DNA of 46,563 nucleotides from a virus. Taxonomy: Duplodnaviria > Heunggongvirae > Uroviricota > Caudoviricetes. The notes beneath the pieces were generated by a model. It made no database searches, was not told the origin of the DNA, and was given only the letters and a program-made list of their open reading frames with translations. Numbering within the stretch: position 1 is the stretch's first letter; every line of letters starts with the position of its first letter. The stretch lies in the IMG/VR virus record IMGVR_UViG_2861038214_000001, positions 1-46,563 of that record; one strand, 5' to 3'. The position numbers and the translations under genes are program-made. Below are positions 1-45,556 of this stretch, one piece after another.

Positions 1-201
1 TTACCCATTGGCGCGGCTTAAGAGCTTATTTTTGAATTCACAATGGTCACGATATAACCATCTTGCTCGTCCGTGGATAACTTTGGCTTTAGGCAGGTCG
101 CCGGACTTAATCCGGTCATAGATGAAGGTCTTACCGAAGCCAGTATCGGCCATGATGAATTTCAAATCAACCAGTGAATCAGGCTGTAGTTCGTGTTGCA
201 T
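1..201 (-). CDS. torI: TorI/AlpA-family excisionase-like recombination directionality factor (66 aa)
   Basis: ORF track 1..201; small AlpA/Xis-like DNA-binding protein (…KFIMADTGFGKTFIYDRIKSGDLPKAK…); matches my recollection of KplE1 TorI; GGAG SD upstream. Confidence 0.75.
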   Translation of the reverse strand: MQHELQPDSLVDLKFIMADTGFGKTFIYDRIKSGDLPKAKVIHGRARWLYRDHCEFKNKLLSRANG

Positions 202-220
202 GAGTGCTATCTCCGAATAG

Positions 221-236
221 GGAATCGAACCTGCAA
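221..236. repeat. 16-bp exact copy (GGAATCGAACCTGCAA) of the argW T-arm segment found at 45495..45510; candidate att core duplicate
   Basis: exact 16-mer match read directly in sequence; flanks diverge on both sides. Confidence 0.5.
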
Positions 237-244
237 ATCAGGCA

Positions 245-266
245 ATAAAAAACCGCCATCAGGCGG
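245..266 (-). terminator. intrinsic terminator (GC hairpin CCGCC/GGCGG followed by U-run on minus strand)
   Basis: plus strand shows A-run then hairpin; sits at the end of the early-left operon, upstream of torI. Confidence 0.5.
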
Positions 267-426
267 CTTGGTGTTCTTTCAGTTCTTCAATTCGAATATT
301 GGTTACGTCTGCATGTGCTATCTGCGCCCATATCATCCAGTGGTTATAGCAGTCGTTGATGTCCTCTGCTTCGATAACCCTGTTGAATGGTTCTCCATTC
401 CATTCACCTGTGACTCGGAAGTGCAT
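259..426 (-). CDS. small hypothetical phage protein (55 aa, MHFRVTGEWNGEPFNRVIEAEDIN…)
   Basis: own translation of minus strand; GGAGAT SD 6-7 nt upstream of ATG; below ORF-track size cutoff. Confidence 0.45.
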   Translation of the reverse strand: MHFRVTGEWNGEPFNRVIEAEDINDCYNHWMIWAQIAHADVTNIRIEELKEHQAA

Positions 427-3674: not shown

Positions 3675-4058
3675 TCAGAATGGGATGGAATCGTCGTATA
3701 CAGGAGTGTTCTGCTGGTTACTACTTTGCTGCTGCGGGCCATTTCCTGAAGCTGCAAATCCAATCTTTGCATTCAGTAATTCAAGAGTGATTGATTGACC
3801 ATTTTGCCCCTGATAAATATCAACCCTGATGTTTTCTCCGGTAATTTCAACAATGCCACCTTCAACAAGAACACTACGGTAGTAATCCGCTTGCGCTCCC
3901 GGCTTGGCAAATACAACGGCGCTGTAGTTTGTCCATTCTTTCTTTTTTGTCTGGCGATCGTAATACTGAACTCCAGCACGGATGTTGAATCCGATATTTT
4001 CCCCGGCCTGAAACTCTCTTGCGGGCTTGTTTAGTCTTACAGTAATCGAATGTGCCAT
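3675..4058 (-). CDS. ssb: phage single-stranded DNA-binding protein-like (127 aa, acidic C-terminal tail …DDSIPF)
   Basis: ORF track 3675..4148 trimmed to ATG overlapping erf stop (TAATG); C-terminal DDSIPF is the SSB interaction tail motif. Confidence 0.6.
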   Translation of the reverse strand: MAHSITVRLNKPAREFQAGENIGFNIRAGVQYYDRQTKKKEWTNYSAVVFAKPGAQADYYRSVLVEGGIVEITGENIRVDIYQGQNGQSITLELLNAKIGFAASGNGPQQQSSNQQNTPVYDDSIPF

Positions 4059-8738: not shown

Positions 8739-9386
8739 TCAGCCAAACGTCTCTTCAGGCCACTGCGCCTTAACTACCTTGCCTATGATGCGGCAGCTAT
8801 GGTCGCAATCCAGTGTTCTATATGCCGGGTTTAAAGGTACCAGGTAACTAACCCCTGCATCCTTCTCATACTTCTTGAACGTTGCCTCTGAATCACCATT
8901 TGCAGAAGCCACGCAGAAATCCCCAGACTCTACCGGCTCAGCCGGATCAACGAGTATCAGCATGCCTTCCGGAAAACTTGGACGAACCCCCTGAGGCGCC
9001 GTCATTGAATGCCCCTTCACCTCAAGCCAGAAAGCTTTTTCGCTGGCTTTTGTGGTCGTTGGGACCCATGCCTTTGCATCGCTGGCTGTGTAGCTTCCCA
9101 CCTCCGAAAATGGCCCGGCCTGCACTGAAGAAAATAACGGGTATTCATATTGGCGAAATACGGCGTCTGAATCCTCGCCAAACATTATTTTTGCCGGAGA
9201 TACGCCGAGTGCCGCCCCAAGAACCAGCGCGTCATCCGCGCTAACCTTTCTTGTTCCTAACTCGTAGTTCCCCAGGCGTGAAGGCGCAGCCCAGCCGCAA
9301 AGCTTGGCCAATTGAGCCTGGCTAAGTCCTTTAGCTTCTCTAAGGGACTTGATCCTTTCCCCGATAATTTCATGCATCGTTTTCAT
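8739..9386 (-). CDS. cI: CI-type prophage repressor (HTH_XRE N-domain, S24 LexA-like autoprotease C-domain)
   Basis: ORF track; Ala-Gly cleavage site (VQAGPF), Ser (GHSM) and Lys (FKKY) dyad conserved; divergent from cro. Confidence 0.85.
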
Positions 9387-9830: not shown

Positions 9831-10127
9831 ATGGCACAAGCAAGCTACAGCAAGCCAACACAGCGAGAAATTGATCGCGCTGAAACTGATTTACTCATCA
9901 ACCTGTCAACGCTTACCCAGCGCGGTCTGGCAAAGATGATTGGCTGTCATGAATCGAAGATAAGCAGAACGGACTGGAGATTTATTGCTTCGGTCTTGTG
10001 TGCTTTCGGAATGGCATCAGACATCAGTCCGATTAGCAGGGCTTTTAAGTATGCGCTTGATGAAATCACAAAGAAAAAATCCCCGGCCGCCACCGAGGAT
10101 TTTAAGCAAATTGATATGCAATTCTGA
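9831..10127 (+). CDS. cII: CII-like transcriptional activator
   Basis: ORF track; C-terminus KKKSPAATEDFKQIDMQF resembles lambda CII KKRPAATERSEQIQMEF. Confidence 0.75.
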   Translation: MAQASYSKPTQREIDRAETDLLINLSTLTQRGLAKMIGCHESKISRTDWRFIASVLCAFGMASDISPISRAFKYALDEITKKKSPAATEDFKQIDMQF

Positions 10128-10159: not shown

Positions 10160-10321
10160 ATGACAAAACGTCGTAAGAAATACCAGGAAAAAGAAGAGAT
10201 TCGACACCCTGATTCACCTGAGGGATTAGTGGTAGCCGCAGCAAATAACAGGGCGTTCGCAGAGCGCCTTGTTGGTGTTTACAGACTAGCCAAAGCAGGA
10301 GTGAAACATGGGCGTCGTTAA
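10160..10321 (+). CDS. small basic hypothetical protein (53 aa, MTKRRKKYQEKEEIRHPDSPEG…)
   Basis: own translation; GGAG SD; overlaps start of O-like gene by 14 nt. Confidence 0.4.
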   Translation: MTKRRKKYQEKEEIRHPDSPEGLVVAAANNRAFAERLVGVYRLAKAGVKHGRR

Positions 10322-11138
10322 GTTAGCTGATTACAGGCCTCAACTGGAGGTCGTGGAGCATCGCGTGGCAGAACTCGAAGATGGCTACACTCGGACTGCA
10401 AACACACTGTTAGAAGCCGCCATGCTTTCTGGACTTACTCTACATCAGTTACTGATTGTTATGGCTGTGTGGCGCAAGACATACGGTTACAACAAAAAAA
10501 TAGATTGGATCGGAAACGAACAGTTCGCTGAACTCACTGGCATGGCACCAACCAAATGCTCTACCGCCAAAAACGAGCTTATCAGAATGGGAGTTCTCAT
10601 TCAGGTTGGGCGTCAAGTTGGTATGAATACAAACATTTTCGAGTGGAAAACGAAAGTTAACGGATTCGGTAAAACATTTACCAATTCGGTAAAACAAACA
10701 TTCACCAAATCGGTAAAAAGCAATTTACCGAATCAGTCAAACACAAAAGACAATATACAAAAGACAATAAATACAAATACCCCCTTACCCCCTAACGGGG
10801 ATGGCGATGGGCAGGTTAAACCTGAACGTCGCAAGGCAGAACGAATCGACTACGAATCCTTCCTGAACGCCTACAACACCGAAGTCGGTGACAGACTTCC
10901 ACACGCTGTTGCGGTCAACGAGAAACGAAAACGCCGCCTGAAGAAAATCATTCCGCAACTGAAAACGCCAAACGTGGACGGTTTCAGAGCGTATGTCAGG
11001 GCGTTTGTGCATCAGGCCAAGCCGTTTTACTTCGGAGACAACGACACTGGCTGGACGGCAGATTTTGATTACCTGCTGAGGGAAGATTCGTTAACGGGAG
11101 TACGGGAAGGGAAGTTTGCAGACAGGGGGATTGCATGA
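10308..11138 (+). CDS. O: replication initiator, lambda O-like (Phage_rep_O N-domain)
   Basis: ORF track; N-terminal O-like HTH region; iterons inside gene. Confidence 0.8.
10666..10733. repeat. replication origin iterons (3 direct TCGGTAAAA(C) copies at about 20-24 bp spacing plus one inverted copy) inside O-like gene
   Basis: direct repeats seen in sequence; followed by A-rich stretch; analogous to lambda ori within O. Confidence 0.6.
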
Positions 11139-14885: not shown

Positions 14886-15553
14886 ATATCTACGAAAGAA
14901 TTGATGGCAGCAAATACCGAAATATTTGGGTAGTTGGCGATCTGCACGGATGCTACACGAACCTGATGAACAAACTGGATACGATTGGATTCGACAACAA
15001 AAAAGACCTGCTTATCTCGGTGGGAGATTTGGTTGATCGTGGTGCAGAGAACGTTGAATGCCTGGAATTAATCACATTCCCCTGGTTCAGAGCTGTACGT
15101 GGAAACCATGAGCAAATGATGATTGATGGCTTATCAGAGCGTGGAAACGTTAATCACTGGCTGCTTAATGGCGGTGGCTGGTTCTTCAATCTCGATTACG
15201 ACAAAGAGATTCTGGCTAAAGCTCTTGCCCATAAAGCAGAAGAACTTCCGTTAATCATCGAACTGGTGAGCAAAGGTAAAAAATATGTCATTTGCCACGC
15301 CGATTATCCTTGTGATGAATACGAGTTTGGAAATCCAGTTGATCATCAGCAGGTAATCTGGAACCGCGAACGAATCGGCAACTCACAAGACGGGATCGTG
15401 AAAGAAATCAAAGGCGCGGACACGTTCATCTTTGGTCATACGCCAGCAGTGAAACCACTCAAATTTGCCAACCAGATGTATATCGATACCGGCGCAGTGT
15501 TCTGCGGAAACCTCACATTGATTCAGGTACAGGGAGAAGGCGCGTGGGCATAA
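14882..15553 (+). CDS. Ser/Thr protein phosphatase (lambda PP / NinI-like metallophosphatase)
   Basis: ORF track; metallophosphatase motifs GDLHG, GDLVDRG, GNHE. Confidence 0.85.
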
Positions 15554-16062
15554 GAGAACTAAACCTCACCAAAGAACAGCATGAGTGGCTGAATGGCTGG
15601 CTTGAACTGTGGGGCGCATGGGTTTATTCAGGTCGTCTGGAAAAGCGCATGAGCAGCGTAATAGCGAAGTTCATGGAGAGCGTAGAGCCGGGAAGAGTTA
15701 TGACAAGGCCAATGTGTAATGATGATGATGGAATGTTGATTTCTCAGGTCGTCGATTCCGTCATGTACATTGACAAGAAAGCCTTTGGCATCCTCCTAAG
15801 CTACTACGCTCATGGTTCATCTAAGCGAGCAATTGCATCCTACTATCACGCGACTGCAAAGCCACGCAAGATGTGTGGACGTGGTGGCGAGGGATGGAGA
15901 AAACCTTCACTGGCAACCTGTAGAAACGAAATTGACGACATCCTGAAAGCGTCATTATTTGTTTTATACCAGCCAATGCAAAATGCTTTTAAAATGCGTA
16001 AACGTGTTGAGAAAGTTAAGCATGTTGCTGTTAAAAGACTTGACATGCAATTATCCATTTAG
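15544..16062 (+). CDS. Q: late-gene antiterminator Q-family protein
   Basis: ORF track; position upstream of lysis cassette; Q-like N-terminal region. Confidence 0.7.
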
Positions 16063-16125: not shown

Positions 16126-16415
16126 CACAACAGGTAAGAGCATTGAACCCGCAGACCTCGCGGAATTGGTGAAAGGTGCCGCGCAGTGCTCTTATCGTTG
16201 TGGTGAAGCTCAATGGCGAGCTAGCAGATAGGCGGCAGTGAAAATACTAGTCATGTAGCTGACCGCCGCGCGTACTGCAATCGGCAGCGCACCGATGGAA
16301 GCCGGTTCGATTCCGGCCGCCACAACCCAAACTGAGCCGTAGCCACTGGCTATCCTGAATTCATCAGTGACAGTTACGCTGCGGACTTCTACACATGACC
16401 TTCGTGAAAGCGGGT

Positions 16416-44158: not shown

Positions 44159-45316
44159 TTACACTCCTGCACGACCATCGATGTAATCAGCCCACCACTG
44201 CATCATTTCTCTGCGCTTATCGAGATACTGCGCATGGTTGTAAATACCGCGCACAGATCCGCCGTTGGCATGTGCCAGTTGCACTTCAATAGCGTCAGCA
44301 GGCCATTCGTGCTCGTTCATAATTGTGCTGAATTCATGCCTGAATCCGTGACCGCTTTCCAGACCCTCATAGCCGATTTGTTTGATCACAAGCAATACCG
44401 CGTTCTCGCAGATTGGCTTCTTCTTATCGTTGCGACCGGCAAAAACAAACTCTGATACTGGTTTAGTGATTGAGCTTAGCGTAGTGAGAAGTTCAACCAC
44501 CTGGTCTGACATAGGAACCACATGAATTTTGCGACCCTTCATCACACTGGCGTCGATGGTGATAATCCTGTTTTCAAAATCGACGTTCTTCCATTGCATG
44601 GAACGAAGCTCTTTCGTTCTTAGGGCTGTATAGCGTAAAACCTTGGTCGCAATGAGCGATACGATGCTTCCTGAAAATGTTGCCAGTGCTTTGTTAAATG
44701 CCGGGATCTGGTCTGCAGGAAGAAACGGGAAGTTTTTCTTGCGGTATCCCTTCATGGCGTCAGCAAGGTCAGGTGCCGGGTTATATTTAGCCCTACCAGT
44801 GACAATAGCGTAACGGAAAACCTCGCCACATCTTCTGCGGGCTTTGTTGGCTCGCTCCATTGCACCGCGATCTTCAAATCTGCGGATTACTTCCAGCAGT
44901 TGCATCGGCTCAATATCCAGAATCTCGAGACCGCCGATGATGGGTAAAATGTCGTCATCAAACATTTTGGCAAGTTCAGTCGCATACCCTACAGACCACA
45001 CTTGCTTCTTGTGCTCGTACCATTCCTTGTAAATGGCACTAAAGGAGTTGTTGTTAGACGAAGCCTTTTTCGCTTTTACCGGATCTATGCCAACCGAGAT
45101 GTCTTTCCTCGCAGTCCATGCTTTATCCCTTGCCTCCTGCAAAGTCATAAGCGGATATTTTCCGACAGTCAGGATTTTCTCCTTACCGTCAATCTTGTAG
45201 CGAAGCTGCCATACCTTTTTCCCTGACACAGGGACATAAAGGTACAGGCCATTACCATCGAGAAGGCGGTATGGTTTTTCTTTCGGCTTTGCTGCTTCAA
45301 TCTGCTTAACGGTGAG
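44159..45316 (-). CDS. intS: tyrosine integrase, P4-type (IntS-like, 385 aa from MLTVKQ…)
   Basis: ORF track 44159..45355; DUF4102 arm-binding N-domain; catalytic R…HxxR…Y region; start chosen at internal ATG by analogy to IntS (GTG at 45355 is the alternative). Confidence 0.85.
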   Translation of the reverse strand, partial: LTVKQIEAAKPKEKPYRLLDGNGLYLYVPVSGKKVWQLRYKIDGKEKILTVGKYPLMTLQEARDKAWTARKDISVGIDPVKAKKASSNNNSFSAIYKEWYEHKKQVWSVGYATELAKMFDDDILPIIGGLEILDIEPMQLLEVIRRFEDRGAMERANKARRRCGEVFRYAIVTGRAKYNPAPDLADAMKGYRKKNFPFLPADQIPAFNKALATFSGSIVSLIATKVLRYTALRTKELRSMQWKNVDFENRIITIDASVMKGRKIHVVPMSDQVVELLTTLSSITKPVSEFVFAGRNDKKKPICENAVLLVIKQIGYEGLESGHGFRHEFSTIMNEHEWPADAIEVQLAHANGGSVRGIYNHAQYLDKRREMMQWWADYIDGRAGV

Positions 45317-45480
45317 CATGGGTAAAAATCCGGTGGGTAAAATTATTTTATCCACTTTTTACCCGTCATGGAGTGCGGCTGTCAACGATCTGACGCGAAC
45401 CATTACGAACTGTGAATCTATGGAAGGCTTGCTATTCAGGGGATTTTGCGGACTGGTACGGATGGGAGCGAACTGATAAA
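45317..45480. promoter_or_regulatory. att arm / intS promoter region with GGGTAAAA direct and inverted repeats
   Basis: three GGGTAAAA(A) copies around the int start; candidate integrase arm-type or RDF sites. Confidence 0.4.
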
Positions 45481-45556
45481 TGGTGTCCCCTGCAGGAATC
45501 GAACCTGCAATTAGCCCTTAGGAGGGGCTCGTTATATCCATTTAACTAAGAGGACA
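45481..45556 (-). tRNA. argW: tRNA-Arg (anticodon CCU)
   Basis: minus strand reads GTCCTCTTAGTTAAATGGATATAACGAGCCCCTCCTAAGGGCTAATTGCAGGTTCGATTCCTGCAGGGGACACCA; cloverleaf with CCU anticodon, encoded CCA. Confidence 0.9.
45495..45510. repeat. 16-bp segment of argW T-arm duplicated at 221..236 (candidate att core)
   Basis: exact match seen in sequence. Confidence 0.5.

Follow-up and report, generated by a model that had tools for sequence, protein, structure and literature searches.

We found that the 16-nt sequence GGAATCGAACCTGCAA at positions 221-236 of the window (the whole 46,563-nt stretch of DNA analysed) is almost certainly not the crossover core of the att sites of this prophage. Taking the parts of the question together, we lean towards the view that it is an additional, internal copy of the argW T-arm, which takes no part in the crossover and has been exapted as a cis element of torI. 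Its conservation across lineages makes it very probable that this piece of tRNA- or att-derived DNA has been kept in front of torI as a selected cis element, and the more specific proposal, read from the sequence, that it is an operator through which TorI or IntS controls torI is put forward as a serious possibility short of a probable one.

The window is a lambdoid prophage with the argW recombination module of the KplE1/HK620/Sf6 type, and each of the defining features of this module that were tested is present in it. Over its first 1300 bases the window matches E. coli WI1 at 100% identity; in that genome, dsdC lies just to the left of the window and the gene at window 1-201 is annotated torI (RefSeq). 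This gene, on the minus strand, encodes a recombination directionality factor (RDF, or excisionase) of 66 amino acids that is 100% identical to K-12 TorI. At the right end, the order is the integrase gene, argW and then a yfdC-like ORF. The integrase gene (44159-45319, minus strand) adjoins argW and is transcribed away from it; its product is an intS-type tyrosine integrase with the Pfam domains Arm-DNA-bind_3, Phage_int_M and Phage_integrase, and the region is colinear with int-attP of HK620. The argW gene itself, a tRNA-Arg(CCT) at 45481-45555 on the minus strand, was called by ARAGORN and scored 63.4 bits with the Rfam tRNA model. The torI gene is found at the prophage end opposite to the integrase, adjoining dsdC.

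In the published KplE1 module, a 16-nt core, CTGCAGGGGACACCAT, is duplicated, intS lies by argW at attL and torI lies distally at attR, and five TorI sites, defined by GTTCG/GATCG/GTCCG, are contained in attL (PMC2951348). Using the K-12 intS ATG at 2464565 as an anchor (PMC2951348), we mapped these sites onto the minus strand of the window: I1 CAGTTCGC and I2 CAGTCCGC (K-12 2464409-2464436) fall at 45448-45475, and I3 CAGTTCGT, I4 TGGTTCGC and I5 CAGATCGT (K-12 2464472-2464499) fall at 45385-45412, in a region that adjoins the -35 of PintS. Modules of the KplE1/HK620/Sf6 type also have TAAA-containing arm-type sites between the core and intS, and the window presents GGGTAAAA arm-type repeats at 45320-45366.

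A search of the whole window recovered both exact copies of GGAATCGAACCTGCAA reported in the preliminary description, at 221-236 and at 45495-45510, both on the plus strand, and the flanks of the two are, as it had stated, unrelated. No further copy with up to 2 mismatches was found in the window, 0.03 being expected for the pattern. The copy at 45495-45510 is inside argW, in its T-arm. In the tRNA sense the 16-mer reads TTGCAGGTTCGATTCC and runs from the last two nt of the variable region through the 5′ T-stem and the T-loop into the 3′ T-stem, of which it takes in the first two nt. An exact 16-nt direct repeat in 46.5 kb is by itself not rare, and the window also contains an unrelated exact 16-mer pair (30481/39338) and an exact 15-mer pair (1018/21136). 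The non-random character of the GGAATCGAACCTGCAA pair follows from three other properties: the copy in argW shares 1 nt with the true att core and is oriented like it, its partner belongs to the excisionase leader at the opposite prophage end, and distant relatives keep the motif at that position. A third exact GGTTCGATTCC, at 16304, belongs to an unrelated tRNA-like fragment downstream of a Q-like gene. We also considered a tRNA gene or pseudogene at 221-236 and rejected it, since the match to the tRNA is of 16 nt only, E. coli lacks the 3′ half of the T-stem there, no cloverleaf or complete arm with acceptor is present, and neither ARAGORN nor Rfam called a tRNA there.

The true att core at the attL (intS) junction is at 45480-45495, where it reads ATGGTGTCCCCTGCAG on the plus strand and CTGCAGGGGACACCAT in the tRNA sense (minus strand). 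It consists of the 3′ T-stem, the acceptor stem and the CCA of argW, and it shares with the 16-mer at argW a single G, at position 45495. In the source genome, the second copy of this core precedes window position 1 by 73-88 bp (window -88 to -73, which is L001 3912-3927), giving a core-to-core prophage length of about 45.6 kb. The preliminary description had first considered the two 16-mers as possible attL and attR cores, with torI outside the core interval and left behind on excision, and had named a true core to the left of the window as the alternative; this alternative is the one borne out, and torI thus lies inside the prophage. The core agrees with the published KplE1 core, with the 17-bp att of Kapi1 and with the features labelled "attP core" in HK620 and Sf6.

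A predicted attP, obtained by joining the phage arm of the right end to the core, then to the 73 bp that precede window position 1 and finally to the window's left end, is colinear with HK620 1208-1720 at about 97% identity. In HK620, the order is int, P′ arm, "attP core", hkaB, hkaC (which is torI), the 16-mer and a terminator, all contiguous in virion-derived DNA. The Sf6 record, annotated in the HK620 manner, likewise has torI, the core and the 16-mer together, and in the phage form of Kapi1 attP is between xis/torI and int (PMC8787464). Phage DNA with the core and one copy of the 16-mer fits a crossover at the core and not a crossover at the 16-mer.

Complete bacterial genomes point in the same direction. 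Among 5426 complete E. coli genomes, 912 matched, at a coverage of at least 80%, a 202-nt query made of the dsdC-side flank, the core and argW, which represents the empty site left by core-to-core excision; the best matches were 100% identical. In contrast, the scar expected from recombination between the 16-mers, a 176-nt query made of torI, the 16-mer and the 5′ part of argW, was found in none of the 5426. The comparison with an unoccupied argW-dsdC locus that the preliminary description had called for therefore speaks for excision from core to core and against its first proposal. Additionally, a 135-bp attR supports excision in vitro (PMC3509656); by its primers, this fragment corresponds to window -110 to +24, without 221-236, and window 5-24 is the complement of the published attR-IHF2 primer that forms its inner end (PMC3509656). 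The integration site of Kapi1 was tested by deletion of the 17-bp acceptor-stem attB (PMC8787464). IntS thus recombines at CTGCAGGGGACACCAT, attP is between torI and intS in the excised phage, and in the lysogen the two genes stand at opposite ends of the prophage, both of them inside it.

The 16-mer at 221-236 is part of the leader of torI. Read on the minus strand, in the sense of torI and of the tRNA, its GTTCG occupies 230-226 and precedes the ATG (201-199) by 29 nt. The leader presents, in order, an intrinsic terminator, about 13 nt, the T-arm box, about 6 nt, the Shine-Dalgarno sequence and the ATG. The terminator, a hairpin followed by a T-run at 250-269 (minus strand), was detected by a terminator scan and ends the upstream early-left gene; its homologues in HK022 and HK140 are annotated as tL4 or as terminator. 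The Shine-Dalgarno sequence GGAG (211-214, minus strand) was read from the sequence and is kept in all aligned relatives. A second, degenerate GTTCG-like box, CTATTCGG, is a candidate at 213-220 (minus strand), 12 nt after the first, where it overlaps the Shine-Dalgarno sequence; at its position GTTCG is found in L009 and L018, GTCCG in L017 and ATTCG in E. coli. Other lambdoid phages (HK022, HK140, mEp, Stx) match the window only from 239/243 rightwards, which places the 16-mer at the outer edge of an argW-specific module. The preliminary description had also considered that the 16-mer might be a secondary site, or a regulatory one, placed after a terminator and before the start of torI: the location is confirmed by the hairpin at 269-250 and by tL4 of HK022, and the regulatory role, for its part, would fit the conservation across genera described below.

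The promoter scan detected no sigma-70 promoter and no -10/-35 pair at the torI leader, so that torI would depend on read-through. Control of torI by Rho has reportedly been described by Menouni et al. in 2013. In the KplE1 literature, excision is controlled via expression of the RDF (torI), and recombination needs a narrow ratio of the proteins. The intS gene has its own mapped promoter, and PtorI has been termed "non-characterized" (PMC2951348).

The 16-mer is invariant or 1 nt off in 79 of 79 IMG/VR contigs with an identical TorI (E. coli-type), in which at least 3 different upstream genes precede it, and it is also present in K-12 (2476275-2476290), HK620, Sf6 and CUS-3. At this level, selection cannot be inferred from conservation, since polymorphism is uniformly low within E. 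coli: per-site polymorphism in 82 E. coli-type modules showed the whole module to be 97-99% identical.

We then relied on torI homologues from genome and viral collections, in which TorI identity goes down to 58%. The box GTTCGATT is found at -28/-29 from the ATG in 26 of the 43 distinct TorI proteins, is one base off in 2 more and is absent in the other 15. Across the lineages that carry it, TorI identity goes down to 74% and the upstream genes differ. In an alignment of 17 diverged leaders, GTTCGATT.C, i.e. the box with the C two positions further on, is invariant, the bases on either side of it are less than 70% conserved and the sequence further upstream is unalignable. The centre GTTCGATTYC is thus invariant in diverged torI leaders across the Enterobacterales. 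Three lineages have the box twice, in tandem, with a 16-nt period in L111/L112 and L113 and a 13-nt period in L115. The match to the T-arm extends further 3′ (CCTG) in Serratia and Pantoea and further 5′ (TTGC) in E. coli, which fits descent from a longer T-arm fragment, the edges of which would have drifted while the centre was held by selection.

What would read such an element? The box travels with torI across phage backbones and hosts, which suggests a reader that is either encoded by the module itself (TorI or IntS) or a universal machine of the host. TorI would be the first candidate and IntS the second. TorI represses intS through its own sites, and GTTCG is its mutationally defined recognition pentamer (PMC2951348). 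This pentamer is contained in the box, the P′ arms of diverged lineages retain GTTCG sites, the second box shows a set of variants (GTTCG, GTCCG, ATTCG) like that of the attL sites, and RDF site arrays typically show a tandem duplication like that of the box. The box 8-mer AGGTTCGA matches a YRGWYCGY-like attL pattern at 6 of 8 positions, and CAGTTCGA (L132, L157) at 7 of 8, this pattern being too short for specificity. Against TorI as reader, the base after GTTCG is always A in the box and is C or T in the attL sites, the spacing of the boxes is 12 nt (13-16 nt in the tandems) compared to the 10-nt phasing of I3-I5, and ATTYC is conserved more strictly than the tolerance of TorI in attL would demand, which makes another or an additional reader possible. 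The published TorI footprints concern attL and attR only. In favour of IntS, TTCGAT is common to the box and to the B/C sides of the core (the tRNA side of attB), and in most lineages other than E. coli it also occurs, in register, at the phage flank of attP as TTCGATGT(A)TGCAGGGG.

We propose that the GTTCG box, with the degenerate box over the Shine-Dalgarno sequence, could form an operator for the recombination proteins of the module. Binding would damp the expression of torI by read-through and would keep RDF and integrase within the narrow ratio required for recombination. A negative feedback on torI would fit the published control of excision via RDF expression and the narrow protein ratio. 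The absence of the box from 15 of 43 TorI lineages indicates that it is dispensable. In its fullest form, the proposal is a T-arm copy planted by the phage at -29 and read by TorI through GTTCG or by IntS through TTCGAT, and in this form we hold it only tentatively. Were it true, an att-derived operator would set the level of the RDF and hence the stability of the lysogen. By the same reading of the pentamer, attL may contain a sixth, so far unrecognised TorI site in the T-loop of argW, where a GTTCG lies 31 bp from that of I1 and in helical phase with I1 and I2.

Among the other explanations, a neutral relic is the one that survives best, and it is unlikely. The 16-mer would then be what is left, at the edge of the module, of an older and longer tRNA-identical segment or of a tRNA-capture event. 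This agrees with its place at the outer edge of the argW-specific module, where the match to other lambdoid phages begins only from 239/243 rightwards, with the fact that 31 contiguous nt of argW are obtained when the 16-mer is joined to the core, and with the lack of the box in 15 of 43 lineages. However, 17 diverged leaders with unalignable flanks share ten invariant central positions, the box keeps a constant distance of -28/-29 to the ATG, and neutral decay would not spare an identical block in each lineage. Two specific routes of origin were also considered and rejected as simple explanations. A simple insertion of torI into a longer tRNA block, attractive in view of the 31 rebuilt nt, does not fit the relatives, which keep a degenerate T-loop, TTCGATGT, adjoining the core, so that there are two T-loop-like segments; and a tandem integration or aberrant excision, when worked out on paper, places the T-arm by the core and intS and not by torI.

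A role of the box at the RNA level appears slightly less likely still. Base pairing of AUUYCC with the Shine-Dalgarno GGAGAU, and of GGUU with the AACC before the ATG, would occlude translation of torI, or the RNA would act as a mimic of the T-arm. The minimum free energy structures of most lineages do pair UUCC with GGAG, Serratia has UUCCUG...CAGGAG, and 87.6% of the cells agree with a two-helix hairpin drawn by hand, compared to 31-66% for slid controls. Nevertheless, RNAalifold gave no consensus structure on the 17 diverged leaders, covariation was not above that of shuffles (239 of 500 shuffles do as well), the folding z-scores, +0.16 to -1.74, are ordinary, and a T-arm stem is found in few lineages only.

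It is improbable that the 16-mer belongs to a cII-dependent pI promoter for expression of the integrase during the establishment of lysogeny, as the annotation of HK620 and Sf6 would have it. The cII box would then be TTGCCTGATTTGC at 233-245 (minus strand), which is annotated in HK620 as the cII-binding site of a putative pI, and the transcripts would start too near torI for torI to be translated. The HK620 features 1689-1701 ("cII protein") and 1664-1702 ("promoter, phage integration") and the Sf6 feature "pI" do map here, the window encodes a cII protein, and a site upstream of torI-attP-intS parallels pI of lambda. The sequence, however, failed the test as a pRE/pI promoter. The spacing is TTGC-N5-TTGC, compared to the canonical N6 of the phage's own pRE-like site inside cII (9840-9853), and the pattern is counted in the window at chance level (7 observed, 6.7 expected). 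Conservation is poor: the first TTGC reads TTAC in 18 of 79 E. coli-type contigs, and diverged lineages in which the T-arm motif is retained have no box of the TTGCCTGATTTGC type. The promoter scan gave no -10/-35 pair, and the promoter mapped for intS is its own (PMC2951348).

The annotated records differ at this place. Some integrases that target tRNA genes have a core layout like that of the T-arm, i.e. stem, 7-nt loop and stem. That the 16-mers are the attL and attR crossover cores, so that excision would leave torI and the acceptor-stem repeat in the chromosome, draws on this resemblance, on the exact direct repeats near both prophage ends and on the CUS-3 record (CP000711), which gives these 16 nt the labels "attL core" and "attR core" and takes them as the phage ends, and it is hardly tenable in view of the 0 scars and 912 empty sites among the 5426 genomes, the HK620 and Sf6 phage DNA with torI, core and 16-mer together, the 135-bp attR that recombines in vitro without the 16-mer, the Kapi1 test by deletion of the 17-bp acceptor-stem attB, and the destruction of argW that recombination at the 16-mer would cause.

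From the crossover evidence, the 16-mer cores of the CUS-3 record are most likely a mis-delimitation that omits torI. The main value of the present analysis is corrective in this respect: the CUS-3 GenBank record delimits the phage at the 16-mer, the preliminary description nearly did so, and argW prophages delimited by their most obvious direct repeat lose torI and about 310 bp of phage. The 16-mer as originally reported is already explained by known biology, being present, and variously annotated, in K-12, HK620, Sf6 and CUS-3. The conservation of the -29 box across genera and its link to the TorI pentamer were not found in the papers on the module consulted here; they are a modest addition and not a new kind of system. 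A 10-nt box at -29, kept across genera and containing the TorI pentamer, offers a concrete target for the study of how control of torI works.

Compared with blocks of identity derived from tRNA, e.g. the pawZ pseudo-tRNA fragment at the end of K-12 CPS-53, the 16-mer is likewise a fragment of the target tRNA and is oriented as the core, but it is off the junction, outside the crossover segment and 293 bp, including torI, from the core. The likeness to pI and the tL terminators of lambda is one of position: the site is in the distal part of the early-left operon, between a tL4-like terminator and the excisionase gene, and the annotators of HK620 and Sf6 proposed pI at this place. It differs from lambda pI in that the cII box is non-canonical and unconserved, the integrase promoter is its own and autoregulated, and attP is between the excisionase and integrase genes.

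With the TorI operator sites I1-I5 (PMC2951348), the box has in common the pentamer GTTCG and its orientation relative to the tRNA-sense strand, and it is likewise near the start of a gene of the module, TorI being known to repress such a gene (intS). The putative site differs from them in presenting one strong and one degenerate box instead of arrays phased by 10 nt, and in its 3′ flank, which is ATTYC and not C/T. From the module of KplE1 (CPS-53), HK620, Sf6, Kapi1 and CUS-3 (Panis, Ansaldi et al.), nothing essential differs. The window has the same TorI as K-12 and an IntS-type integrase by argW, the same core at both junctions, the five TorI sites and the GGGTAAAA repeats in their published places, and likewise an attP between torI and intS; the 16-mer is at the same place in K-12, HK620, Sf6 and CUS-3, and the rest of the window prophage is a different mosaic.

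The published sequence of the related phage CUS-3 (CP000711) assigns the attL and attR cores, by label, to the 16-mer copied from the argW T-arm (positions 1-16 of both compared sequences, L004 and L161). This record, deposited as a complete genome, terminates at the T-arm 16-mer, and therefore torI and the real attR core are missing from it. At the attL end of CUS-3, the order is T-arm, real core and P' arm. In K-12, the attR core copy of CPS-53 is annotated in RefSeq as the pseudogene pawZ (L162 1585-1599, i.e. 2476584-2476598 of the K-12 genome), and the T-arm copy upstream of torI, at 2476275-2476290, is unannotated. The published primer attL-KpnI ends in GCTAATTGCAGGTTCGATTCC (PMC3509656). 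Its last 16 nucleotides also match the T-arm copy of the torI leader exactly, so that every lysogen carrying the argW module has two sites at which the 3' end of this primer can anneal perfectly.

In attL, the distance from the GTTCG of the argW T-loop (window 45495-45505) to the GTTCG of the TorI site I1 (I1 and I2, 45448-45475) is 31 bp, and the successive spacings onward from I1 to I2, I3, I4 and I5 are 20, 43, 10 and 10 bp, all near whole helical turns. On the basis of this sequence phasing, the argW T-loop could be an extra, unrecognised TorI site, or the phasing could be a coincidence.

The attR/attP core is adjoined by an inverted repeat, CCCCTGC and GCAGGGG separated by 15-17 nt (L001, the source genome flank, 3928-3975, corresponding to window -72 to -25; relatives L005-L026), in which Rouxiella (L016) carries a compensatory change, CCCCTACA..TGTAGGGG. 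Beside the core, TTCGATGT(A)TGCAGGGG is retained in most non-E. coli lineages with the tRNA T-loop register preserved, and this core-adjoining element may be the core-type half-site of IntS.

In the window, the gene of a Q-like antiterminator (15544-16062) has downstream of it a tRNA 3'-half-like fragment, GAAGCCGGTTCGATTCCGGCCGCCACAACCCA (16290-16330, plus strand), with a complete T-arm and an acceptor-like tail. This fragment, called as a tRNA by neither ARAGORN nor Rfam, is probably the remnant of a phage tRNA gene that has decayed. The tRNA-Ala(cgc) called by ARAGORN at 9106-9188 (minus strand) lies within the ORF of a CI-like repressor with HTH and Peptidase_S24 domains (8739-9386), and is probably a false positive because Rfam found no tRNA at these positions.

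A tandem pair of 20-nt repeats, TTAACGGATTCGGTAAAACA and TTTACCAATTCGGTAAAACA (10657-10696, plus strand), probably origin iterons, is found within the gene of the O-like replication initiator (10308-11138). A cII box of the canonical TTGC-N6-TTGC form, TTGCTGTAGCTTGC (9840-9853, minus strand), lies inside the cII gene (9831-10127), at its 5' end and on the opposite strand, which is the classic pRE position.

The torI homologues of Proteus and Arsenophonus (L021, L024 and L137-L141) lie immediately before a convergently oriented integrase gene, whose 3' end faces them; the two genes are not separated by an att core, and the T-arm box is absent upstream of the homologue. These loci represent a different module layout within the same RDF family. 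In Arsenophonus nasoniae (L020, 2530-2590), the torI homologue is preceded by TTGCGTGAGATTTGCGTGTAATTG, which resembles the lambda pI/cII region; its leader is thus organised differently from those with the T-arm box.
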